A stretch of DNA of 64,000 nucleotides from Promethearchaeota archaeon (GTDB lineage: Archaea; Asgardarchaeota; Lokiarchaeia; Sigyniarchaeales; SOKP01): NCBI GenBank assembly GCA_048938445.1, contig JBHLME010000004.1:13976-77975 (forward strand), read 5' to 3'. How positions within the stretch are numbered: the stretch's first letter is position 1; each line of letters opens with the position of its first letter. Shown one piece after another: positions 12,015-51,276 of the stretch. The notes beneath the pieces are model-generated. The model saw only the letters and a list, made by a program, of their open reading frames with translations. It was not told the DNA's origin and ran no database searches. The translations under genes were made by a program, and so were the position numbers.

Positions 12015-14366
12015 ATGAGTAAACATGGAGCAAGATTAAAAATTGACTCTTATAAAGGACCACTTGGCACTATTAAGGGTTTTGAGTTTACAACGGGCAA
12101 GATCGTGCGTGAGGGAGATGAAAGTGAGTGGGAACCAATGGGCCCACACCCAAAACCTCATATTCCCACATTACGCTCTTGGTTCTTCAAATTAATGGAT
12201 AGATACAATCCAACATACATGCCAATCTGTGATATGTGCTGTTTATGTACGTATGGGAAATGTAATCTTTCCAAGGGAAGAACTGGAGCATGTGGTATTA
12301 ATATGGAAACGCAGAATGCTCGAATCGTAGAGATTGCCTGCTGTATTGGTGCAGCATGTCATAGTGCCCATGGGGACCATCTGCTTCACTGGTTAAAGGA
12401 AAAATATGGAAACATTCCTATTAATTTTGGTAACAATATTGCTGTTGAAATGCCCTGTACAAGATTAATAGTGGGTATGAAACCAGAGACATTAGAAGAT
12501 TTGGAAGCAGCAATGGAATGGGTTCATTTTACAATAACTCATTTATTAGCAGCGGGTCATACTGGTCAAGAAAGTTCTAATCTTGATTATGAATCTAAAA
12601 GTTTTCTCGCAGGTTTAGCAGATTCCGTTGGGATGGAAATATCTGATGCCGTCCAAATTGCAGCATATGGATTTCCTGTTGGTGATCCCGATGTTCCAAT
12701 TGTAGAATTAGGTATGGGGACCATTGATACTTCAAAAGCTACGATATTAATGATCGGACATAACGTTGCACCTGGTGTTGAATTAGTTGATTACCTTCGT
12801 GAAAAAGGAATTGAAGACCAAATAGAGGTTGGTGCGATTTGTTGCACTGCTCATGATTTAACTCGGTACTATAGTGGTGCTAAAATTGTAGGGTCAATGT
12901 CAAGACAATTACATTTCATTAGGTCTGGAATACCTGATGTGGTAATGGTTGATGAACAATGTGTTAATCTTCGTGCATTTGAACAAGCTCAATTAATTAA
13001 TGCACCATTTATAGCAACGAATGAAAAAAATATGGGGGGTTTACCAGACAGGACAGCCGATAATATCAATGATATTGTCCAAGATTTAGTCAATGGTAAA
13101 ATCCCTGGAGTTTTAATCCTTGATCCAATTAAAGCAGGAGCGATTGCAGCAGAAACAGCAATAAAAGTGAAACCCAAAAGAGCAGGAAAGAGCGCGGTTC
13201 CGGACGAAAAAGGATGTATCGACATGGCAATGAACTGTAATGGATGTGGTAATTGTCAGAGAAATTGTCCTAATGATTTACCACTTGTAGAGGGAGTAAA
13301 GCTTGCTAAGGAGGGGGATTTCTCAGTGCTTGCTGATGTTTTCGATTTATGCTTAGTCTGTGGACGTTGTGAAAGCGATTGTATGAAAGAAGTCTCTCCA
13401 CTCACGCTAATTATGCATGCTGGAAGAGAGAAAATTAAAAATGAGACGTTTAATTGTAGAGTTGGGAGAGGTCCTATTAAAGATACAGAAATTCGGAATG
13501 TTGGAGCACCAATTGTACTAGGTGAGATTCCGGGAATTGTCGCTATAATTGGATGTGCAAATTATGCAAAAGAAATCCAAGAGTTATATAGAATGGCTGA
13601 AGAATTCTTAACGAGAAATTACATTGTCGTCGTTTCTGGATGTGGTGCAATGGATATTGGTCTTGTAAAAGATGAAGATGGTAAGACTCTTTATGATAGA
13701 TTCCCTGGAGACTTTGATAGGGGTGGTTTGGTTAACGTAGGTTCTTGCGTATCGAATCCTCATATTACTGGCGCTGCGTGTAAAGTAGCAAATATTTTTG
13801 CAAGACGTCCTCTCAGAGGTAACTTCGAAGAAATAGCGGATTATATATTAAACCGTGTTGGAGCTGTTGGAGTTGCATGGGGCGCAATGAGTCAGAAGGC
13901 AGCAAGTATTGCAAGTAGTGCTAATAGTTTGGGAGTTCCTGCGGTAGTTGGACCACACTCTGCTGAATATAGACGTTTATATCTTGGTAAGACTTATGAT
14001 GTAGAAAATTGGAAGGTCTATAATGCCAGGGATGGTTCGAAAGGTCATTTAATTGGCCCCGGTCCTGAACATTTATTAACTACTGCGGAATCCATTGAGC
14101 AAGCAATATGTCTTGTTGCGAAATTAGCTTTAAGACCTGCAGATAACTCAAAGGGAAGGATGATAAAAATCTCTCATTGGATCGACTTGGAGAGAAAATA
14201 TAAAGGCGTTATGTTCCCCAATGATTTAGAGAAATTCGTTCGGGTTGAGGCCGATATTCCAATCAATTTGAAAGATGAGATAGTCGCATATCTGAAAGAA
14301 AAGGGTTGGAAACAGAAAGAACTAATTGATCCTACTCTTATTGAAAGATTATGTCATAATAAATAA
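12015..14366 (+). CDS. cdhA: CO dehydrogenase/acetyl-CoA synthase complex alpha subunit (archaeal Ni-CODH)
   Basis: CDMCCLCTYGKC, GACG, ACHSAH, IGHN, ICCTAHD, DEQC, two ferredoxin motifs, GCAN, SGCG, VGSCVSN, SQKA. Confidence 0.96.
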   Translation: MSKHGARLKIDSYKGPLGTIKGFEFTTGKIVREGDESEWEPMGPHPKPHIPTLRSWFFKLMDRYNPTYMPICDMCCLCTYGKCNLSKGRTGACGINMETQNARIVEIACCIGAACHSAHGDHLLHWLKEKYGNIPINFGNNIAVEMPCTRLIVGMKPETLEDLEAAMEWVHFTITHLLAAGHTGQESSNLDYESKSFLAGLADSVGMEISDAVQIAAYGFPVGDPDVPIVELGMGTIDTSKATILMIGHNVAPGVELVDYLREKGIEDQIEVGAICCTAHDLTRYYSGAKIVGSMSRQLHFIRSGIPDVVMVDEQCVNLRAFEQAQLINAPFIATNEKNMGGLPDRTADNINDIVQDLVNGKIPGVLILDPIKAGAIAAETAIKVKPKRAGKSAVPDEKGCIDMAMNCNGCGNCQRNCPNDLPLVEGVKLAKEGDFSVLADVFDLCLVCGRCESDCMKEVSPLTLIMHAGREKIKNETFNCRVGRGPIKDTEIRNVGAPIVLGEIPGIVAIIGCANYAKEIQELYRMAEEFLTRNYIVVVSGCGAMDIGLVKDEDGKTLYDRFPGDFDRGGLVNVGSCVSNPHITGAACKVANIFARRPLRGNFEEIADYILNRVGAVGVAWGAMSQKAASIASSANSLGVPAVVGPHSAEYRRLYLGKTYDVENWKVYNARDGSKGHLIGPGPEHLLTTAESIEQAICLVAKLALRPADNSKGRMIKISHWIDLERKYKGVMFPNDLEKFVRVEADIPINLKDEIVAYLKEKGWKQKELIDPTLIERLCHNK

Positions 14367-36729: not shown

Positions 36730-37491
36730 TTATCGCCTCCAAATTTTTGGTTTTGAAAATCTATAGAATATGCCAGAATATTTTTTTAAATCTTTCACAA
36801 GATTAAGCAAACTTAAGAAATTAATTATACTCGAAGTAAAATCTCTTGAGACGGGTCCAAGACATCCTTCACATGGAATTCCTCGCTTTATGCATTCATG
36901 ATCACATCCCTCTCTAGTAATAGGTCCTAAGCACATAATTCCTCTACTTAAGAAGCAATTGGTATTTTCTTCATAATTATTGAGTTCAATATTGTGAGGA
37001 TATAGCTGATTAATCTGAGTAATCGGATTGAATTTAAAAGTAGTTTTGTAGGGACATTCTGAACATAAATTCTTTTTAGATAATTCAATATTTTTTCTCT
37101 CTAATAGTTTTATCAGACAATTTCCAAATAATTTTGACGGTGGAGGACAACCTGGTATGATTCCATCTATCTCTATAAAATCTGATAGAGGGGCGGCAAT
37201 CTTTTTTTTTGATAAACTTAAAATTCCTCCAAAAGCGGCACATGTCCCTAATGCGTATACTTTTTTTGTAGATATTCTTATATCTTTAAGAAAGTCAATC
37301 TGTGAATCCTCTGAAACACATCCTTCTATCAATGCTATATCACATAAATCTGCCCGAGGTTTATCAGATATAAAAGGAAAGTAAGATATTTCTGTTCTCT
37401 CTAGAAGTTGAGGAAAGATATCTAAGGAAATCAAAGAAGATATACAACCGCTACAAGATGTTAATGAGGTAATTAGAAATTTAAGTTTCAA
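36730..37491 (-). CDS. mvhG: [NiFe]-hydrogenase small subunit (MvhG-like)
   Basis: SCSGC, GTCAAFGG, PGCPP, CSECP, CFL..G.MCLGPITREGC...C...IPCEGCLGP. Confidence 0.88.
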   Translation of the reverse strand: MKLKFLITSLTSCSGCISSLISLDIFPQLLERTEISYFPFISDKPRADLCDIALIEGCVSEDSQIDFLKDIRISTKKVYALGTCAAFGGILSLSKKKIAAPLSDFIEIDGIIPGCPPPSKLFGNCLIKLLERKNIELSKKNLCSECPYKTTFKFNPITQINQLYPHNIELNNYEENTNCFLSRGIMCLGPITREGCDHECIKRGIPCEGCLGPVSRDFTSSIINFLSLLNLVKDLKKYSGIFYRFSKPKIWRR

Positions 37492-40027
37492 ATTTGTATT
37501 CCTCCTTTAATAGGTTATAAAATCTATTACTAATGTTTGAAAATTTTATTCCTTCTACAGCATTTAGGTTTTTAACAATTATATTCCTGCCTAACCTTGG
37601 CCCTAAGACCTTTTTTAATAATTGCACTTTTTTCTGTATTTTTTGAATGCCATCTAGATATCTGCAAGCATCTTTCCTACATCCAATAATCATTACTCCA
37701 TGAAATCCCCTTTCAAGAGCTCTTATTATGAAATTAGTATCAACCCGTCCGGTGCAAGGAACTCTAATGATAAATATATTGGGACGATAAAATTGTTTTT
37801 TAAGACCAGCATCATCGGCTGCAGCATACCCACAAGATTTACAGCAAAATGCTAAAATCTTAGGAGAAACGTTAAATTTTGAGTAAATGTCTATAGTTTT
37901 AAAAATCTTTTCATTGGTATCAATATTCATCTCAATAGCATTAGTTGGACAGACGCTTACACATGTTCCACATCCTTTACATTTAAATTTATCAATATTT
38001 ATTTTTTCCCCTTCAATCGTTATGGCATTGTATGGGCAAGCATTAACACACAATGAACAAAGTCCGCATCTTGTCTCATCAAGTTCTATCCCTGTGAATT
38101 CTGAAATTAAATAATCTTTCGATAGAAGTGATATTATTTTAAGTGCAACATTATTGGAAATATTTATTGTTGATTGATAGTTAAAAGGACCTAGTATTGT
38201 TCCAACTCCATAAATCCCTGAGGCCAATGTTTCTTCACTCATGAAACCGTTATCATTTAAAGTAAAATCAAGAGTTTTTCTGAGGGTTTTTAAATCCTTA
38301 TTGGGCATTAAATTGAGGTTCAAAATAATCAAATCACTTGGATATTCTTTTGAATCTGCAATCACTATATTTTCTTTATCATTTTTTTCTATTTTGACTT
38401 GTGAAACATAATGAACTCTTGAATCCATAGATTTCATAATTGGCTCATGGTTATGATGGAAATTTTTTAAATCATAAAAGGTATTTACGTGACAATCTGG
38501 GTTTTTTACTTTAATGCAATTTAAGTATTTTAGAGCAATATTATCTGCAAGTTCGGAATGATCGTGAGCAGGTCCAACATCCTGAATGATGGAGATGGAT
38601 TTTGGAGGTTTTCTATCAGATAATTTAACTATTTTACCTTCAGTAGGACCATCTGAAGATAATATCCTTTCAAATTCTACTGAAGTTATGATATTATCCT
38701 GAGGATTATAGTGATAATCTTTCAGATCTGAATATAAATCAGCACCTATAGCGATAACTTTCACACCCACTTTAATTTTAATTTCCTCTGGTTTTTGAGT
38801 TAAATCTATGGCTTTATTCACGCACGCTCTTTCACAAATCCTACAATTTAAGCAATTTTTAATATCAATTTCTTCTATTAAAGGAGCATAGGGATATGAA
38901 TTTTGAAAAGGAAGAAAAATTACTTTCCTGTTTACAAGATTAAACTCATATTGATTGGGTTTTTCCACACTGCATACTTCTATACATTGTTTGCATCCAG
39001 TACATTTTTTTTCATCTACAAAGCGAGGTTTTTTAATTAAATTTATGGCGAAATTGCCGACTTCACCAGAAACACTCTTTATTTCCGTATTAGTGAATAT
39101 TTCAATGTTTTTTTCTTTTACAATTTCTCCTATCAATTCTGAAATGAAACATATTGAGCAATCCCCCATTTTATAGATTCTATGCCACCGTGCCACTTTT
39201 CCTCCTAAAGTTGGAGATTTTTCAATTAAATACACTTTAATACCTGCTCTCGCCAAATTTAAACCTAAGGTCATTCCTGCTATACCCCCTCCTAATATAG
39301 CACAGCTTTTTTCAACCTCAACTCTTTTTACTTTAATTTCTTTTTGCAGATATATACGCTCGACAGCGGCTTCGATTAATAATTGTGCCTTTTTTAAAAT
39401 CAGAGCTGAATCATCTTTGCTATTAATCATTTGATGCACCCAACAACATTGTTCTCTAATATTTGCTATTTCAAGATTAGATCGATCGATTAATCCCTCA
39501 AAAATCCTTTCAAAAACATGTTGATGTGTCTTGGGAGAACATGCCGCAATTACGATTTTATTCAAGAAGTTTTCTTTAACCCAATTGGAAATTTTATCCA
39601 AATTTTTCTCTTGACATAAATTTTCAAATATCTTTACTGAAACAACATTTTGTATTTTATTGATATAGTTCTCTAAAGCGTTGATGTTAATTGTATTAGA
39701 AATTTCAGTATTACAGTTGCAAATAATCACTCCAATTCGATTTATTTCACTGCCTTTTGAATTAAGATATTCTATTTCTTCTCCTGATAAAATTCTTTTA
39801 TTTATATTAAGAATTTTTAAAATTCTTTTACCATCTTCAGTTAAAAAATATGATTTTTTATCTTTACCAATAAGAGAACCGAGTTTTCTTAGGTGGAAAT
39901 TTAATTGTCCTGTTTGATCTAAACCCAATTTATCCATTAAATCTGTGTATGGTATGTAACCCTCTTTTTCAAGGAGTAGTAAAATTTTTCTTCTAAACTC
40001 ATGAGACAATATTGAGTATATATCCAT
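37481..40027 (-). CDS. fusion of ArsR-like winged HTH, HdrA-like flavoprotein and MvhD domain
   Basis: aa ~1-80 LSHEFRRKILLLL..YTDLM..L....GQLNFHLRKL...YFLTEDGK; HdrA region ICNC, AACSPKTH, NIREQCCWVH, GGGIAG and four ferredoxin motifs; C-terminal FCCKSCGYAAAD, RVPCTGRVD, GCRKDACRY. Confidence 0.9.
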   Translation of the reverse strand: MDIYSILSHEFRRKILLLLEKEGYIPYTDLMDKLGLDQTGQLNFHLRKLGSLIGKDKKSYFLTEDGKRILKILNINKRILSGEEIEYLNSKGSEINRIGVIICNCNTEISNTININALENYINKIQNVVSVKIFENLCQEKNLDKISNWVKENFLNKIVIAACSPKTHQHVFERIFEGLIDRSNLEIANIREQCCWVHQMINSKDDSALILKKAQLLIEAAVERIYLQKEIKVKRVEVEKSCAILGGGIAGMTLGLNLARAGIKVYLIEKSPTLGGKVARWHRIYKMGDCSICFISELIGEIVKEKNIEIFTNTEIKSVSGEVGNFAINLIKKPRFVDEKKCTGCKQCIEVCSVEKPNQYEFNLVNRKVIFLPFQNSYPYAPLIEEIDIKNCLNCRICERACVNKAIDLTQKPEEIKIKVGVKVIAIGADLYSDLKDYHYNPQDNIITSVEFERILSSDGPTEGKIVKLSDRKPPKSISIIQDVGPAHDHSELADNIALKYLNCIKVKNPDCHVNTFYDLKNFHHNHEPIMKSMDSRVHYVSQVKIEKNDKENIVIADSKEYPSDLIILNLNLMPNKDLKTLRKTLDFTLNDNGFMSEETLASGIYGVGTILGPFNYQSTINISNNVALKIISLLSKDYLISEFTGIELDETRCGLCSLCVNACPYNAITIEGEKINIDKFKCKGCGTCVSVCPTNAIEMNIDTNEKIFKTIDIYSKFNVSPKILAFCCKSCGYAAADDAGLKKQFYRPNIFIIRVPCTGRVDTNFIIRALERGFHGVMIIGCRKDACRYLDGIQKIQKKVQLLKKVLGPRLGRNIIVKNLNAVEGIKFSNISNRFYNLLKEEYKFET

Positions 40028-42868: not shown

Positions 42869-45157
42869 ATGGTCGAATTTTCGAGGGCTCCTAAATTTTT
42901 GAAAAAAGTTAGAATTAAAGATGCTTTTAAAGAAGATGCTGGGAGAGGGATAGTCAGAATAGATCCTGAAATTATCAAGGAATTAAATTTTAAGTCTGGA
43001 GATGTTATTGAAATTATTCATCCCATCGTAAACAAAAAAACAGCAGCAGTTTTAATGACAGGTAAAAGTGAAGATGCCAATACGAATATCATCCGAATTG
43101 ATCCTTCATTAAGAAGAAATTTAAATGCATCTATTGATGATTACGTGGAAATTAGAAAGATTGAAGCCATTTTAGCAGATAATCTAATTCTTTCAGGATT
43201 AGATCAATCATATATCATTAGAGATATACAACAATTGACTAGGATCTTAGACAGTCGTGTAGTTACCAAAGGTGATAGTCTCAGTTTTTATGCAATGGGA
43301 CGTAGAATCGATTTGGTAATACTTGATTATTTACCAAAAGCTGATGCTGTGAAAATACATTTAGGAACAAAAATTAAGCTCTCTGAGAATATAACTAAAG
43401 AACTTATAAAACAAGAACCATCTAGAGTAAAAAGAATAAAATATGAAGCAATAAGTGAATTAGAAGAGGAAATGGAAAAGCTTCGAGGACGAATAACTTA
43501 TGAAGATATCGGTGGATTAGAAAACATTATTCAAAGAGTTAGAGAAATAATTGAATTACCTATAAGACATCCAGAATTATTTAAAAAAATTGGTATTGAT
43601 CCTCCTAAAGGTGTTTTATTGCATGGCCCGCCTGGTACGGGTAAGACACTGCTTGCTCGAGCTATAGCATTTGAGACAGATGCTCAATTTATTTCTATTA
43701 GCGGTCCAGAAATCATGAGTAAATTTTTTGGTCAGAGCGAAGAAAATTTGAGAAATATTTTTGAAGAAGCAAAAAAAAAGGCACCTACAATAATATTTCT
43801 TGATGAATTGGATTCAATTGCACCTCAACGAGATGAAGGTAAAGGACAAGTAGAATCTAGAGTTGTTGCTCAATTACTTTCATTGATGGACGGATTAGAA
43901 AATAGAGGTGAAATAATTGTAATTGGAGCAACTAATAAAATTAATAATATAGACATTGCTTTGAGAAGACCCGGGAGATTTGACAGAGAAATAGAAATCG
44001 GTGCGCCGAATTTAGATGGGAGATATGAAATCTTATTAATTCATACTCGAGGAATGCCTCTATCAAAAGATTTAGACTTAAAATTAATTGCAAATAAAAC
44101 ACATGGATTTGTTGGAGCAGATATTAAAGCATTATGCAAAGAAGCTGCAATGCTAGCGATAAGAGAGATCCTTCCTGATATTAATTTAGAAGATCCTGTT
44201 CCCGAAGAAATATTAAATAAAATTGAAATTAGAATGGATCATTTTATAGAAGCATTAAATAGTATAGAACCTTCTGCTTTAAGAGAAGTTCTAATAATAA
44301 AACCAACAGAAACATGGGATGACATTGGAGGGCTAGATGAGGCTAAACAACAGTTAAGAGAAACTATAGAATGGCCTTTAAAATATCCAGGATTTTATAA
44401 ATATATGAAATCCCAACCTCCAAGTGGAATCTTGCTATATGGTTTACCAGGAACAGGGAAAACTTTATTAGCAAAAGCACTTGCTCATGAAACAGAGGTA
44501 AATTTTATTTCCATCAAAGGTCCTGAATTTTTATCTAAATGGGTTGGTGAAAGTGCTAAAGCTGTGCGAGAAACCTTCAAAAAAGCACGATCTGCTGCCC
44601 CTTGTATCATCTTTTTTGATGAAATCGATGCTATAGCTTCCAGAAGGGCTGAATCATCTAGCTCTCGTGTAGTTGAACAAGTTGTTGCACAACTTCTAAC
44701 AGAGATCGATGGATTAGAGGAATTACATAATGTTGTATTATTAGCTGCAACAAATAGACCTGATATGCTAGATCCTGCTCTATTGCGTTCAGGAAGATTT
44801 GGGCGCCATATTGAAGTTCCATTGCCAAATCAAGTCTCAAGACAAAAAATATTTAAAATTCATTTAAAAGAAAAACCCCTATCTGATGAAATTGATATTA
44901 ATAAACTAGCTGAAAAACTCGACGGATATACGGGTGCTGATATTAAAGGAGTGTGTGAAGAGGCTACCATATTAGCTATTCGCCGGGGAATTTATGAACA
45001 ATCAGTAGATGAGATCAATCCAAAATCTTATGATAGTGTTAAGATTACTATGAGCGATTTTGATAAATCAATTGAAAAGATCTCCAAAACAGCAGAAAGA
45101 GCGAAAAAGTCCTATCAAGAAAATTTAAAAGAACCTCTTGAAAATTTGTATGGATGA
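42869..45157 (+). CDS. cdc48: Cdc48/p97/VAT AAA+ ATPase
   Basis: N domain [10 protein letters not shown], two Walker A motifs ([16 protein letters not shown]), [12 protein letters not shown]-terminal LYG HbYX motif. Confidence 0.96.
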
Positions 45158-45994: not shown

Positions 45995-46585
45995 TTGGTA
46001 GCTATAAATAATCGAGCAAGGTTAAAAAAAAACTTAATAATATATTTAGTCGGATTTGAGAATAATAGCACAAAATTTGAAAATTTAAAAGAAATATTTT
46101 GGTTATTCAAGGATAGGTTGGTTAATTACGCAACATTCTATATTGCTGATGACAATTCTATATTATGGCAAGATTCTCCTCTTCCAGATTTATTAAAATC
46201 ATATAATATTCCTTATTTTGAAATAGAAATTCCTAAACAAACAAAAATGTTTTTTGATGATAAAGTTCAAACAATTAAAAAATATATGACTAAGGATTTG
46301 CACGAATATAATCTTTTAGTTGATAAAAATTGTGCTAGAGGTCGTTATTTAAAATTTTGGAAGGAATTATATGAAAATGAACTCAAAGAAATTAAACGGT
46401 TTTTTGAATATAAAATTATACCAGTTTACATAGCAGAATCTATATTAGAAAAACTTGAAGGAATGTTAGATGAAGATTTATTGTTGTTGCATTTTGGTGA
46501 GATAAGTACTTTTGGAGAAATAATGAAAGTAGTAAAACATGTTAATTCAAAAATTGATATCTCCTATATACACTATATGAGCTAG
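45995..46585 (+). CDS. hypothetical protein, local paralog family member 4
   Basis: IPYFEIEIP, RYLKFWKE and LLLLHF motifs parallel 40384/41032; GAGGTG SD before a TTG start. Confidence 0.75.
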   Translation: MVAINNRARLKKNLIIYLVGFENNSTKFENLKEIFWLFKDRLVNYATFYIADDNSILWQDSPLPDLLKSYNIPYFEIEIPKQTKMFFDDKVQTIKKYMTKDLHEYNLLVDKNCARGRYLKFWKELYENELKEIKRFFEYKIIPVYIAESILEKLEGMLDEDLLLLHFGEISTFGEIMKVVKHVNSKIDISYIHYMS

Positions 46586-46736
46586 TATATCAAGTTGGAT
46601 TTGTAGAATCATATAATATTTTTAAAAATTAAAGAAAGGAAAGTAGATTTGGATATAAGTTCGAAATTAATCATAAACAATTAAAAAATGGAGGAAAAAA
46701 ACTAAAATAAAAACAAATAAAGGTAATGCAAAGATT

Positions 46737-48677
46737 ATGGATACAAAGGATAAAAGTCGAATTTTCGTAGCTATCTGTCAATGAGGATTAAATATCACGG
46801 AAGTAATTGAATGTAAGACTTTAGCAGATTATACAAAAAATCTTCCTAATATTGTAGGCAGTGGGAGTTATATCAGTCTCTGTACTGCTTCGGGATCATC
46901 ATTTATTCAGCAAAATATTGAGTCCACTAAAGCCAATCGATTGATTATTGTTGCTTGAACGCCAAAGACACATGAGCCTGTTTTTAAAACAATATTAAAA
47001 AATATTGGAATTGATTCATCTTATTTAGAATTTGTAAATATAAGGGAACATTCCTCATTTGTCCATAGAAACGATAAGAATGGTGCATTGAATGTAGCAA
47101 AAGATCTTATTAGAGGAGCAATTGCTAGAGCCGCAAATTTAGAGAAAATTGCTATTAAAAAAATCGATTTAACTAAAAAAATATTAATAATAGGTGCTGG
47201 AGTAGCCGGATTATCAGCAGCAATAGATTTAGCGAATTTAGGTTTTGATGTGAATATCGTTGAAAAAAGACCTAGCATTGGGGGTCTTATGGCTAAACTT
47301 GATAGAACCTTTCCTACGGATGATTGTAGTATTTGAATATTAGGGCCGATTATGTTAAAAGTAGCGAATATTCCTAACATTCAATTGTTTACATATACAG
47401 ATATTGAAGATATTTCAGGTCATATTGGAAATTTTAAAATTCTTATAAAACAAAAAGCAAGATATGTTACTAATGATTGCAATGGATGCGGAGCCTGCGT
47501 AGAAGCGTGTCCTGCATATGGATTTGATGAATTTAATGAAAATCTCAACTCAAGAAGGGCAATATATATTTATTTTGCTCAAGCGGTACCTTTAACAGCT
47601 CAAATAGATATGGAACGTTGTATAAATTGTAAATTATGAATAGATTCTTGTGAATTGAATGCTATTGATTTTAATCAGAAGGATGTATTTACAAATTTAA
47701 ATGTGGGGTCAATAATTGTTACAACCGGTCTCGATGTTCATAAAGGAAGAGAATATGGCAGAGGAAAATATCAAAACATATTAACTCAGCTTGAATTGGA
47801 AAGAATATTGGCTCCAAATGGACCAACTTCTGGACATTTAGTAAGACCTTCTGATGGAAAGCGACCTAAGAAAATATTATTTATAAATTGAGCTGGCTCA
47901 AGAGATCGTAATAGTCATCCCTATTGTAGCGTTGTATGCTGTAATTTATCCGTAAAAAACTCAAAATTAATAAAAACAGAATACCCTGATACAGAAATAG
48001 TTGTAAGTTTTATAGATATGAGATGTGCTGGAAAGGACTATGAAGAATATTATAATAGAGCAAGAGATTGTGGAATAATATTTCTTAGGGGTCATGTTGG
48101 AAAAATAAAAGAAGATCCTACAACAAAAGACCTACTCGTACAAATTGAAGCCTTTAATATGGAACACTACTTGGAAATGAAATTTGAACTTATTGTGTTG
48201 TCTTCAGCGTCAATTCCTTCAAAATATGCAAAAAAAATAAAAAAAATCTTAGCTTTGGAAACAAGCAGAGATGGATTTTTTAAAGAAGTTCATTCACGTT
48301 TAAATTTAATCGATACTAAAATTCCAGGAATTTGCATTGCAGGAGCTGCACAAGGCCCAAAGTCAATACCAGAAGCGATAATTCAGGGAAGAGCTGCAGC
48401 ATCTTCTTTGTCGGGTATTATGAATAAGGATAAATATGAAATACTTCTCATTCGAGGATATATAGATAATCATTTATGCTCGAAATGTGGATTATGTCAA
48501 TTAAATTGTCCTTACAATGCAATTACAATAAATAATAATCATGCTGAAGTCAATGAGATTACTTGTAAGGGATGTGGAACTTGTTTAGCAAATTGTCCAT
48601 CCGAAGCGATAACACTAAAATATTATAGAGAAGCTCAATATGAAGAACAAATTGATGCTATACTATTTGAATCGTAG
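46737..48677 (+). CDS. hdrA: heterodisulfide reductase subunit A, selenoprotein with five in-frame TGA (Sec) codons, 646 aa
   Basis: Single frame from ATG 46737 to TAG 48677; TGA at 46782, 46956, 47334, 47637 and 47889 in contexts ICQ*G, VA*TPKTHE, TDDCSI*ILGP, CINCKL*IDSC and FIN*AGSRD, all conserved HdrA Cys positions. Confidence 0.92.
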
Positions 48678-48722
48678 AATTGAATTAAAAATTAACAGTG
48701 TCTAAATTTAACAATATTAGCT

Positions 48723-48806
48723 AATAATAAAGCCCGTAAGAAGGATTCCTATGAAGAAATGCTAGTCATATGAGGACTCACCCTGCAAGGGAGCGGGTTT
48801 TTTATT
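48723..48806 (+). ncRNA. structured 3' UTR, candidate SECIS element
   Basis: GC-rich island closed by AATAATAAAGCCCG / CGGGTTTTTTATT; inner TCCT-ATGA...TGA-GGA and CCCT-GCA-AGGG hairpins; begins 45 nt after the hdrA stop. Confidence 0.55.
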
Positions 48807-48844
48807 AAATTTTTATATATAATATCCTGTCAGGTGTTAATGAA

Positions 48845-49351
48845 ATGGTTGCAATTAATTATAAATTTCGGAATCAGATTCTTGAAAATGTTAATGGTTC
48901 AACATTGGCTTGTTGTTATCAATGTGCAACTTGTTCAGGAATTTGTCCTGTAGCACAAGTCACAAAAGGCAAATATAATCCTAGGAGATTAATACTTGAT
49001 GCACTTTTGGGTTTGAGACACATGATATTCGGTTTAGATAAAAATTTTAATATTTGGGGTTGTACTGTCTGTGATACATGTGATGAGGTTTGTCCTCAAA
49101 ATGTTAAACTCACTGAAATCTTTACCATTTTAAAAAATATAAGTGTCGAAAAGGGTGAAGCACCCGATTATTATTACATTCAAGCATCAAATATACTCGA
49201 GACTGCAAAAGCAATTCCAAGTCAACCCGCTATCCAAAGAAGACGAAATCAATTAGGATTGCCTAAAATAATGGAGCCTGATGTTGCTGAAATAAAAAAA
49301 CTCTTAAAAGCCACAAACCTTTCAATGAAACTTCGAAAAATTAGAGAATAA
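48845..49351 (+). CDS. hdrC: heterodisulfide reductase subunit C
   Basis: CYQCATCSGICP, YNPRR, WGCTVCDTCDEVCP. Confidence 0.92.
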   Translation: MVAINYKFRNQILENVNGSTLACCYQCATCSGICPVAQVTKGKYNPRRLILDALLGLRHMIFGLDKNFNIWGCTVCDTCDEVCPQNVKLTEIFTILKNISVEKGEAPDYYYIQASNILETAKAIPSQPAIQRRRNQLGLPKIMEPDVAEIKKLLKATNLSMKLRKIRE

Positions 49352-49674
49352 TTGTTTTTTAAGAGTTGTATTTAATTTTTCACTCAACGATTTTTCTATA
49401 TAATATCTAAAAAGAAATTATAAATATTTTCTTATATATTAAGTGAAAATACCTATACGAATACTCCAGTCAAACTCATCCTTTTTTATAACACCAATGA
49501 TAAATTTAATAATCATATTTTTTAAATTTATTAATATTTATCAAGAGAATAAAATTTCATTTCCTTTTCAAATTATTTAATCACATATACTTTCTAGGTT
49601 TTTGATTTCTATTTTTTACTCTAAATAATCTATTAGTTTAAAAAAAAAAGAAATAATAATTTCATATCATTAAA

Positions 49675-50604
49675 TTAGCCTTTAACAACTTCAATAAGCT
49701 TAGGAAATATCCTAGGATAATGGACTGCCATGCAGTGAACTCCTGCTAATAATTTTTTAGCTTTTAATTCAGTTACAAAAGGTTTTAAGAATTCATAGTT
49801 AGCTTGGTCGTATGCTTCATTTTGATCCTTTTTATCTGTTATTTCTGTTTTTATTTTTTTCCATTTTTCAAGAATATCCTTCGGTACGTCCACCCCTGGA
49901 ACAAACATATCAAATCCTTTTGCAATCGCATAACTTTTCATTGGAAATAAGCCAAGTAAAACAGGAACTTTATATCGAAGGATTGCTCTTAAAAATTCAA
50001 TAGTCTTATCTAGGTCATAAACAACCTGCGTTTGTATGAATTCTGCTCCAGCTTCAGCTTTTCTTCCTATTTTTAAAACTTCAGGTTCCATTGGATCTGA
50101 ATTGGGATTTGCAGCCGCACCAACATGTAGTTTAGGAGGATGATCGATTTCTTTACCATTGATACTCCCAGTATCCACCATCTGTCGTGTGAGTTTTACC
50201 AATGTAGCAGAATCTAGATCAAATACAGGCTTTGATTCGGGCATATCACCCATTCTTGGATGATCTCCAGTAAGAGATAGAACATTATGGATACCTAAAG
50301 CTTCAGCACCCATTATCATTCCCGCAATCCCTAATTTGTTGACGTCTCTTACAGTTAATTGCCAAATACACTCTAAACCTGCGTCTCTCTGGACTATATA
50401 GGATGCAGCTAAACTGTTAATAGTAACGATTCCTAAAGGACTATCTGTCACATTAGCAGCAACCACATAGGGTGCCATATCTTTCGCTTCTTGAACTAAA
50501 TGGGAGAGATTACAAGTTTTCTCGGGTTCAAGCTCTCCGGTGAGGACGAATTCCTTCTTTGCTAATGCTTCACCTAACTTTGAATAAATTTTTGTTTCTA
50601 CCAT
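49675..50604 (-). CDS. metF: methylenetetrahydrofolate reductase
   Basis: GELEP, NVTDSP, TVRDVN, LTGDHP, KAEAGAEFIQTQVVYD. Confidence 0.92.
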   Translation of the reverse strand: MVETKIYSKLGEALAKKEFVLTGELEPEKTCNLSHLVQEAKDMAPYVVAANVTDSPLGIVTINSLAASYIVQRDAGLECIWQLTVRDVNKLGIAGMIMGAEALGIHNVLSLTGDHPRMGDMPESKPVFDLDSATLVKLTRQMVDTGSINGKEIDHPPKLHVGAAANPNSDPMEPEVLKIGRKAEAGAEFIQTQVVYDLDKTIEFLRAILRYKVPVLLGLFPMKSYAIAKGFDMFVPGVDVPKDILEKWKKIKTEITDKKDQNEAYDQANYEFLKPFVTELKAKKLLAGVHCMAVHYPRIFPKLIEVVKG

Positions 50605-50610
50605 TTTTTT

Positions 50611-51276
50611 CTACCTCCATACAACCTCTCTTTGATGTCCTGATTCGCTCCAATCAATAGGCGCTCTCAATTTTGTAAATAAATCCAATTTTTTTAATTC
50701 TTTTAACCTTTCATAAATCAAGATCCATCCACAATCCCGTTCATAATTACCAACCTCGCATTTTCCTCTAACCATTCCACCACAAGGGCCATTCATAAGT
50801 GATTTTGCACAAGTAGTTATTGGACAAATTCCTCCTGTTTCATTTAATAAACATTGACCACAACCCCTACAACGCATATAAAACCTCCCAATCCGTTCAG
50901 TCATTCCCATAAATTCCGTGTTGGTACCGATGAACACAGGAAGTTTAGGATATTTTTTTTCTAGCGCTTTTATAATACTCGCGACTCCAAGTCCACAACT
51001 CAAGGTCAATATCGCATCAGTTTCTTTTAAATCTTCATCAATTTTTCTGAAATCTTTGAGCATTGCTCGATTATCACAGACTTCCTCTGGAATAATAACA
51101 GTCGTAATTTCAAATCCTTTTTCCTCTAATTTTTTTGTCATTTCTGTAGCTCCTTCCGTCCCACCAGTTTGACACATCGCAGCACAGGAGCCACATGAAA
51201 CTATCGCTATTTTATTGGCATTTTTAATGGCTCCAAATATTTCTTCAAAAGGTTTTTTTGTTGTGATTATTGTCAT
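50611..51276 (-). CDS. metV: methylenetetrahydrofolate reductase Fe-S subunit
   Basis: CGSCAAMCQTGG, SCGLGV, CRGCGQC, GGICPITTCAKSLMNGPCGG, CGW..IYERL. Confidence 0.92.
   Translation of the reverse strand: MTIITTKKPFEEIFGAIKNANKIAIVSCGSCAAMCQTGGTEGATEMTKKLEEKGFEITTVIIPEEVCDNRAMLKDFRKIDEDLKETDAILTLSCGLGVASIIKALEKKYPKLPVFIGTNTEFMGMTERIGRFYMRCRGCGQCLLNETGGICPITTCAKSLMNGPCGGMVRGKCEVGNYERDCGWILIYERLKELKKLDLFTKLRAPIDWSESGHQREVVWR

Follow-up and report, generated by a model that had tools for sequence, protein, structure and literature searches.

The 64,000-nucleotide (nt) stretch of DNA analyzed here (the window) is a part of contig JBHLME010000004.1 of the GenBank assembly GCA_048938445.1, Promethearchaeota archaeon. 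At positions 46737-48677 its forward strand carries a gene of the HdrA type with five in-frame TGA codons. We consider this gene to be probably an intact and most likely functional hdrA whose product would contain five selenocysteine (Sec) residues; the kind of selenoprotein is a published one, of which this gene is a variant. The product would be the flavin-based electron-bifurcating subunit in a member of Promethearchaeota (Asgard, Loki-group). An initial annotation of the window had proposed site-specific recoding to Sec, and this is still the best reading of the five TGAs: all of them fall on cysteine (Cys) columns, a selenocysteine insertion sequence (SECIS) element is situated behind the gene, genes of Sec synthesis and decoding are present in the genome, and TGA is still used as a stop codon.

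Reading frame, TGA codons and the encoded protein

The gene and its TGA codons are located as follows.

46737-48677, + strand: HdrA-type flavoprotein gene with five in-frame TGA codons; full-length match to solved HdrA chains
46782-46784, + strand: TGA codon 16, C-x-U in the N-terminal cluster domain
46956-46958, + strand: TGA codon 74, N-terminal cluster domain
47334-47336, + strand: TGA codon 200, canonical HdrA Sec site (D-C-x-x-U)
47637-47639, + strand: TGA codon 301, third Cys position of the second CxxCxxCxxxC motif, inserted ferredoxin domain
47889-47891, + strand: TGA codon 385, first Cys of C-x11-C-x3-C-C, thioredoxin-reductase-like domain

Translation of the plus strand gave a single frame of 646 codons ending with TAG, and exactly five in-frame stops were found in it, all TGA, at codons 16, 74, 200, 301 and 385. 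The same frame, the same codons and the same residue contexts (ICQUG, VAUTPKTHE, DCSIUILGP, CINCKLUIDSC and FINUAGSRD) had been given in the initial annotation. Under translation table 11 the gene appears as the open reading frame (ORF) fragments 47088-47336, 47352-47639, 47655-47891 and 48018-48677; the opposite strand is closed by many stops. A frameshifted or fused ORF was ruled out, as one frame runs without a shift over the whole of 46737-48677.

The identity of the gene as hdrA, also proposed at the outset, was borne out by a full-length match to a solved structure. When TGA was translated as a residue, the protein matched the chain 9sfi_A with an E-value of 6.5e-190 (residues 8-643 versus 5-650), with the identity of ~52-53% of the aligned positions as read off the printed full-length alignment. 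Further solved HdrA chains followed, 5odc_A (E 2.7e-181) and 8rvu_a (E 1.2e-179). Codon 200 pairs with the X (Sec) of 9sfi_A, which is presumably the HdrA of Methanococcus maripaludis, and with Cys197 of 5odc_A. Codons 16, 74, 301 and 385, counted along the printed alignment, pair with Cys13, Cys71, Cys299 and Cys386 of 5odc_A.

The Pfam models placed a Rossmann motif for flavin adenine dinucleotide (FAD) at residues ~147-198 (NAD_binding_8, DAO, FAD_oxidored and Pyr_redox_2) and ferredoxin (Fer4) domains at ~241-308 and 575-629. The CxxCxxCxxxC motifs start at residues 248, 295, 581 and 610; in the second of them the third Cys position (301) is a TGA. The NCBIfam model HdrA2 matched with 726.7 bits (E 2.9e-218; curated cut-off 1100) and the model HdrA with 544.9 bits (cut-off 1400), both below their cut-offs; these models, of ~770 positions, were made for methanogen enzymes that are longer than this product. 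The gene belongs to the wider HdrA family, outside the methanogen HdrA equivalogs.

In the protein as we picture it, Sec would stand for Cys at sites 16 and 74 of the N-terminal cluster domain, in the Cys/Sec pair by the FAD (200), at the third ligand position of a [4Fe-4S] ferredoxin motif (301) and at the first Cys of a four-Cys motif (385). The initial annotation had all five at iron-sulfur ligand positions, and this is only partly borne out. Site 301 occupies the third Cys position in a CxxCxxCxxxC motif, and the surroundings offer no spare Cys; ferredoxin motifs of this type bind a [4Fe-4S] cluster. Site 385 opens an invariant C-x11-C-x3-C-C, presumably the binding site of the FAD-adjacent cluster of the 2017 crystal structure. 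From these motifs we infer that Sec301 and Sec385 would bind iron. Sites 16 and 74 belong to a set of four invariant Cys in the N-terminal cluster domain and could be assigned to that domain only; in HdrA this domain holds a 'shuttle' cluster, named HA3 or A3 (PMC13580544, PMC13518236).

The role of site 200 is contested. Two cryo-electron microscopy (cryo-EM) studies of 2026 place the Cys/Sec pair between the cluster and the FAD, in one case as a selenylsulfide (PMC13518236) and in the other as holding an unknown ligand (PMC13580544). An earlier account described Cys197, the equivalent of site 200, as a ligand of the N-terminal cluster of the partner subunit (PMC9012536). In PMC4989117, which predates the HdrA structures, the Sec sites are not regarded as cluster ligands, with the exception of the C-terminal one. 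The role of the canonical pair was left open by the 2026 cryo-EM work, and natural Sec variants at other sites are useful pointers in this respect.

SECIS element and proposed Sec decoding

This hdrA gene has its own SECIS element, of the loki type, located immediately downstream.

48729-48802, + strand: loki-type SECIS in the 3' untranslated region (UTR) of hdrA, covariance model match of 57.1 bits
48729-48736 with 48794-48801: lower helix
48742-48745: core AGGA
48746-48754 with 48766-48774: 9-nt stem
48755-48765: 11-nt loop
48775-48776: GA
48781-48791: mini hairpin, followed by a T run

The core begins 65 nt past the TAG; the stem has eight of nine possible pairs, and it is closed by the 11-nt loop AGAAAUGCUAG and followed by the 3' GA. 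The covariance model, designated R1, was built from 24 other SECIS elements, with this element left out, and still matched it with an E-value of 9e-13; this was the sole match in the window at E up to 1. The 24 elements are what remained of 34 after the removal of nine members of a second clade, misaligned by MAFFT, and of the near-duplicate L049; the first match at L086 was spurious and was excluded from the SECIS alignment and fold sets. Among the 24 elements all nine stem pairs change on both sides, and none of 500 shuffles matched the observed score.

Two close orthologs of the gene are known, G002 (81% identical) and G005 (76% identical). Both have a SECIS at the same place, with the canonical AUGA core and compensatory changes in the stem (AUGA/UCAU versus ACGA/UCGU). 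The offset of the element from the first base of the stop codon was 67 nt in this gene and 66 and 90 nt in the orthologs, compared to 425-504 nt in 33 of the 34 other HdrA genes. Taken with the match to the SECIS model, these offsets show that the element is the gene's own, a departure from the published rule by which hdrA shares its SECIS with a downstream gene.

A search pattern requiring [AG]TGA skipped the element and a scan tolerant to NNGA recovered it; the initial annotation made no mention of a SECIS in this 3' UTR. In the region 46000-49500 Rfam gave no match to a SECIS family and just a chance match to a miRNA (E 7.5); Rfam seems to lack a model fitting this element. The plain minimum free energy fold of the intergenic region had a stability no greater than that of shuffled sequences (z 0.30).

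The core sequence AGGA is unusual. PMC11227280 names the core variants AUGA_AA and GUGA_GA, and AGGA is absent from its main text. The AGGA element was found unchanged in a 636-nt contig of another study (run X4, record 24) and is therefore not an assembly slip. In our own interpretation, the changed base would be the third nucleotide of the kink-turn bulge, with the tandem G-A pairs and the flanking G-C pair kept, and a SECIS with the AGGA core may work.

We propose that the mRNA would extend from ~46737 to the T run behind 48802, this run being the ground for placing the end there, and that its 3' UTR would hold the SECIS as a kink-turn arm within a three-way junction. The Sec-specific elongation factor would deliver Sec-tRNA(Sec) at each UGA, 0.85-1.96 kb ahead of the SECIS, until translation would end at the UAG. 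All five UGAs would be read as Sec; the view of the initial annotation that several UGAs are decoded in one mRNA accords with the presence of all five in a single frame.

A side observation concerns the architecture of the loki-type SECIS in general. It is a three-way junction, not a simple hairpin, in which a lower helix, the kink-turn arm and, on the 3' side, a mini hairpin meet; 34 of 35 elements fold in this way with the arm constrained, and the sequence of the mini-hairpin stem varies among genomes (e.g., L028:3923-3999). The words 'junction' and 'hairpin' are absent from the main text of PMC4989117 outside its references; that of PMC11227280 has 'junction' solely within the title of a cited work and lacks 'hairpin'.

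The genome carries Sec machinery, the presence of which the initial annotation had named as a check. SepSecS (contig C157, 471.7 bits) and EFSec/SelB (C108, 243.3 bits) were found above their cut-offs, and SelD (C226) was found with one in-frame TGA; a PSTK-like gene and a likely tRNA-Sec were found with scores below cut-offs. The position of the latter is as follows.

C108:40439-40558 (= L002:1452-1571), continued into C157:1-75: likely tRNA-Sec; the ends of C108 and C157 overlap by 73 nt

The likely tRNA-Sec has a UCA anticodon in the loop CUUCAAA, a 4-bp T stem, a long variable arm and, by eye, an insert of ~32 nt in the D loop. SepSecS starts ~75 nt downstream of it, and EFSec is located ~4.6 kb upstream on the other strand. 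A like order of tRNA-Sec, SepSecS and EFSec in Loki is described in PMC4989117, where the published tRNA-Sec intron is in the T loop. The R1 model detected eight further SECIS elements in the genome. Read-through ORFs with in-frame TGA (a VhuD-like ORF, SelD and a small ORF with three TGAs) end at or just before some of the R1 elements; at the elements in C24 and C176 no read-through ORF with TGA was found.

TGA is still a normal stop codon in this organism, as had been noted initially from the window. It terminates six of the 42 window ORFs of at least 150 aa, including the Cdc48-like ORF 42869-45157, and 396 of the 2185 genome ORFs of at least 250 aa (18%). Therefore, the recoding is site-specific and the codon is not reassigned. 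The alternative that TGA is reassigned, or that a near-cognate tRNA reads it as Cys or Trp with no selenium involved, would leave the frame open, as would any code reading TGA as a residue, which is nothing specific. We regard it as extremely improbable in view of this stop usage, of the restriction of the five TGAs to Cys columns, of the SECIS behind the gene and of the Sec synthesis genes; besides, the 44 calls made by aragorn include no further tRNA with the anticodon UCA.

Conservation of the Sec sites and competing explanations

Two sets of HdrA genes were aligned. Set 1 had 45 genes (the 30 best loci of relatives and 15 metagenome loci), and set 2 had 25 genes (20 further HdrA chosen for at least three TGAs, this gene and four paralogs). 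The sets share one duplicate gene and together represent ~68 HdrA genes.

In set 1, Sec was observed 44 times in column 200, 38 times in column 16, 16 times in column 74, six times in column 49 and twice in column 591, which is the fourth Cys of the C-terminal ferredoxin motif; in columns 301 and 385 it was observed once each, in this gene only. Column 16 has Cys wherever it is covered and not Sec, and column 385 has Cys in the other 44 of the 45 genes. Columns 14, 16, 49, 74, 197, 200, 385, 397, 401 and 402 have Cys or Sec in all covering sequences (42-45 of the 45, the rest being gaps). In set 2 we observed Sec in five genes at column 298, where the ferredoxin motif that contains 301 has its second Cys, and in one gene at column 248. 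The loci with Sec in ferredoxin motifs are L112 (G003:C433), L115, L117, L118, L125 and L126, as well as L030 and L045. One of them, the gene of a relative in G003:C433, is a second HdrA with five Sec, at columns 16, 49, 74, 200 and 298. Thus, neither Sec in ferredoxin motifs nor a count of five Sec per HdrA is confined to the gene described here, both being found elsewhere in public genomes. Over all the aligned genes, Sec occupies nine different Cys columns, compared to the five positions of PMC4989117: 16, 49, 74, 200, 248, 298, 301, 385 and 591. Of these, column 49 belongs, like 16 and 74, to the N-terminal cluster domain, and column 248, like 298 and 301, to the inserted ferredoxin domain.

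Sec at 301 or 385 was seen in none of the other 44 genes of set 1 and 24 genes of set 2. The orthologs G002 and G005 were the sole close ones among 61 relatives, 400 genomes of the phylum, a collection of species-representative genomes and a metagenome collection. The scan of the metagenome collection gave 20 loci, none above 55% identity, and the scan of the species-representative collection gave 15 loci, none of them close beyond G002 and G005. When the region 240-420 was searched in 400 Asgard genomes, 150 matches were listed, with 1929 more beyond those; no TGA was found in this region among the 149 other matches listed.

The alternation of TGA and Cys codons among orthologs, a check named in the initial annotation, can be followed site by site. 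TGA at 16, 74 and 200 is conserved in both close orthologs and common in the group; at 301 and 385 both orthologs carry Cys codons, TGT and TGC. The two additional TGAs would have arisen in the lineage of this genome via single TGY-to-TGA changes.

We also looked for the TGA codons in contigs of public sequencing runs, which are consensus sequences. TGA16 was unchanged in records 17 and 19 of run X4; TGA16 and TGA74 were kept in record 27 of run X8, a 95%-identical variant with 10 differences elsewhere; TGA200 was present in record 10 of run X3 and in record 22 of X4; TGA385 was present in record 12 of X3, a 975-nt contig of another study with a single difference elsewhere. The probable source contig, in run X1, covers the whole stretch at a depth of 9.3 with no difference. 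In the sequence data, then, four of the TGAs (16, 74, 200 and 385) are confirmed by contigs of other studies and TGA301 is not independently shown.

These data bear on the possibility that the protein has three Sec (16, 74 and 200), with TGA301 or both extra TGAs being assembly errors or minor variants of a dominant allele with Cys. We hold this to be improbable. It is in line with the narrow support for TGA301, with the TGT and TGC codons of the orthologs at the extra sites and with the consensus nature of the examined contigs, from which rare variants are dropped. On the other side stand TGA385 in the contig of another study, the source contig with no difference over the stretch and the low likelihood that two errors would both hit the third base of invariant Cys codons.

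Selection on the gene was estimated by the ratio of non-synonymous to synonymous substitution rates (dN/dS) in comparison with the 81%-identical ortholog. The ratio was 0.089 for the gene as a whole; codons 302-384 gave 0.095 and codons 386-646 gave 0.083, and no segment between or after the TGAs fell outside 0.07-0.13. Since synonymous sites in this comparison are near saturation (dS > 1), the dN/dS values speak for long-term constraint and cannot rule out a very recent loss. Among lineage-specific changes we counted 60 synonymous and 25 non-synonymous ones in this gene versus 76 and 19 in the ortholog (Fisher p 0.17); past codon 301 the counts in this gene were 32 versus 12. The selection downstream of the first TGA, at issue since the initial annotation, is purifying (dN/dS ~0.09). 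As for chance, Cys-type codons make up 30 of the 120 hdrA codons that are one substitution away from TGA, so that five of five TGAs would fall on Cys with p ~0.001 and the two lineage-specific ones alone with p ~0.06.

Several observations weigh against the interpretation of the gene as a working five-Sec hdrA. The core AGGA is unlike that of the other 36 elements scanned (35 with ATGA and one, weak, with GTGA), and one C-U mismatch interrupts the SECIS stem. Among the ~68 HdrA genes and the matches listed, TGA301 and TGA385 occur in this gene alone, the orthologs having Cys. The altered core and the two TGAs coincide as lineage-specific oddities, a pattern that is also expected of early decay. 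For TGA301 the sole sources are the probable source run X1 and record 23 of X4, the latter with five differences at positions not listed. The PSTK-like gene (C208, E 2.5e-46) is below the curated cut-off, and the likely tRNA-Sec scored 39.5 bits against the Rfam cut-off of 47; aragorn gave no tRNA-Sec call, with introns allowed or not, and also with the overlapping contig ends joined. The 5' half of this tRNA was read by eye, with a 9-bp acceptor stem whose 5' strand is 51 nt upstream. The estimate of contamination of the assembly is 8%. Finally, the putative iron-binding role of 16, 74 and 385 is deduced from conserved motifs and from the 2017 crystal structure paper.

The strongest competing explanation is the early decay just mentioned: a three-Sec ancestor would have lost SECIS function by the change of AUGA to AGGA and the stem mismatch, translation would stop at codon 16 and the extra TGAs would be neutral. 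We judge this to be unlikely, though less so than a three-Sec protein. It fits the facts that AGGA is found in one of 37 elements and, like both extra TGAs, is lineage-specific, that the p-value for two random TGAs both hitting Cys codons is ~0.06 and that the non-synonymous share is somewhat higher here than in the ortholog (25/85 versus 19/95), though with p 0.17. Decay is opposed by the 1.9 kb kept free of frameshifts, TAA and TAG, by the low dN/dS after every TGA along with the excess of synonymous changes past codon 301, and by contigs of another study, in which the same allele (AGGA, TGA385) recurs. Furthermore, intact relatives repeat the change of Cys to Sec at other ferredoxin-motif positions, and the altered SECIS base would, as we interpret it, lie in the kink-turn bulge, where G-A pairs and stems are kept.

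With a functional five-Sec HdrA as the preferred interpretation, a broader idea may be put forward tentatively, as one that we find attractive and yet stop short of favoring. In HdrA of Asgard archaea, Sec may have replaced Cys repeatedly and independently at [4Fe-4S]-binding positions, and the present gene may have selenium on both arms of electron bifurcation and a SECIS core off the AUGA rule. If this is true, Sec385 would be on the high-potential arm towards HdrC and Sec16, Sec74 and Sec301 would be on the low-potential arm; nature would then offer a set of selenium-ligated iron-sulfur clusters.

Relation to known systems and the gene neighborhood

HdrA with several Sec has been known in Loki archaea since 2016, so the headline is not new and the addition made by this gene is smaller. 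In PMC4989117 (Mariotti 2016), Loki HdrA genes are described in which Sec occurs at five positions, at most four of them in one gene, and one SECIS is said to serve as many as six UGAs over ~2 kb; by our reconstruction from sequence, the five positions would be 16, 49, 74, 200 and 591. The survey of Asgard selenoproteins was later extended to 227 genomes (PMC11227280). In both papers hdrA is 'always' in tandem with vhuD/frhD, and nearly all pairs share one SECIS behind them. A 2026 review lists prokaryotic selenoproteins with 2-3 Sec (PMC13188914). We found no published maximum above four Sec per HdrA in the literature; the supplementary lists of PMC4989117 and PMC11227280 may contain such genes. 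The novelty that the initial annotation saw in a multi-Sec HdrA was not sustained, given this published kind and the second five-Sec HdrA in a relative.

The likeness to the Loki multi-Sec HdrA is close: the same family and phylum-level group, several UGAs at conserved Cys with the canonical site ~200 always included, an eukaryote-like SECIS (9-bp stem, 11-nt A-rich loop, 3' GA) acting over ~2 kb, and UAA or UAG as the stop. Unlike the others, the present gene has five Sec, two of them at positions not met elsewhere (301 and 385), its own SECIS (as in the two orthologs), no VhuD downstream and the AGGA core. What the gene adds is one Sec beyond the maximum named in PMC4989117, a Sec at an unambiguous ligand position of a ferredoxin motif and another in the four-Cys motif of the FAD domain. 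Together with its two orthologs it makes an exception to the rule of a SECIS shared with downstream frhD/vhuD, and the AGGA core, if functional, would widen the range of accepted cores.

The HdrA of M. maripaludis uses the euryarchaeal type of SECIS. It resembles the present product in the D-C-x-x-U motif, with Sec197, and in the order of domains (N-terminal cluster, FAD, inserted ferredoxin and C-terminal ferredoxin), and it differs in having one Sec and in being a part of the HdrABC-Vhu-Fwd assembly that reduces CoM-S-S-CoB (PMC13518236). The gene described here has four further Sec and adjoins HdrC-like and MetF/MetV-like genes.

Sec residues of eukaryotic selenoprotein P (SelenoP) serve selenium transport and not cofactor binding. 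The likeness to this protein, itself unrelated, is an analogy in decoding only: many UGAs in one mRNA and a kink-turn SECIS in the 3' UTR. SelenoP, with its two SECIS elements (PMC4989117), relies on SBP2; in Asgard archaea this factor was not found.

The genes next to hdrA and a second HdrA-like gene of the window are as follows.

48845-49351, + strand: HdrC-like iron-sulfur protein gene, possible partner; Pfam Fer4_8, TIGR03290 with E 1.2e-27
49675-50604, - strand: MetF-like gene, Pfam MTHFR with E 1.5e-29; convergent to hdrA
50611-51276, - strand: MetV-like gene, Pfam DUF5981 (methylene-tetrahydrofolate reductase C-terminal) with E 7e-34; convergent to hdrA
37481-40027, - strand: second HdrA-like gene, Cys-only, 848 aa, with Asp at the equivalent of codon 385

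The match of the HdrC-like gene to NCBIfam TIGR03290 (HdrC) is below the cut-off of this model. The SECIS sits between hdrA and this gene, and there is no VhuD downstream; no HdrB-like gene was found among the scanned neighbors. Downstream of the two orthologs there is neither an HdrB-like nor an HdrC-like gene, and the place of the latter is taken by a convergent AMP-ligase-like gene. In the acetogen Moorella thermoacetica an HdrA homologue is likewise found near MetF, MetV and HdrC-like genes, within the MetFV-HdrABC-MvhD complex (PMC9012536). Unlike there, MetF and MetV are here convergent to hdrA and do not form one operon with it, and HdrB and MvhD are not adjacent; the neighborhood is missing in both orthologs, which makes this likeness a weak lead.

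For the second HdrA-like gene of the window, alignment confirmed the Cys residues that the initial annotation had reported at four equivalent sites and gave Asp at the fifth. Its product has a C-terminal MvhD/FlpD fusion and an N-terminal DUF7347 domain. Elsewhere in the genome, four other HdrA genes have 2-4 TGAs at these same sites, while five paralogs contain only Cys. Behind each of the four Sec-HdrA genes (in C20, C117, C204 and C4) come a VhuD-like ORF, which has two in-frame TGAs, and then a SECIS, in agreement with the published arrangement. These elements, 450-475 nt behind the four hdrA genes, are canonical loki-type ones (ATGA, 9-bp stem, 11-nt loop starting with A, GA); a SECIS of this type is also present behind SelD.

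Two more observations were made in the genome. A cluster of 19 tRNA genes occupies 2.5 kb of contig C215 (6483-8983), with two tRNA-Ser genes 4.6 kb away (13610-13791). This array accounts for nearly half of the aragorn tRNA calls in the assembly, and the 8% contamination estimate bears on the origin of the contig. The small three-TGA ORF has 118 codons, no Cys and three TGAs in the motif A-U-G-U-U-A (C53:11501-11854; L111:1142-1498), with a tandem copy at C53:12067-12423. It has no Pfam match, and a canonical AUGA SECIS is situated 5 nt past its TAG. It may belong to the Prx-like (UxxU) family of PMC4989117, for which that paper gives one or two Sec. Homologues of this ORF with 2-3 in-frame TGAs were found in 37 of 61 related genomes, this one included.

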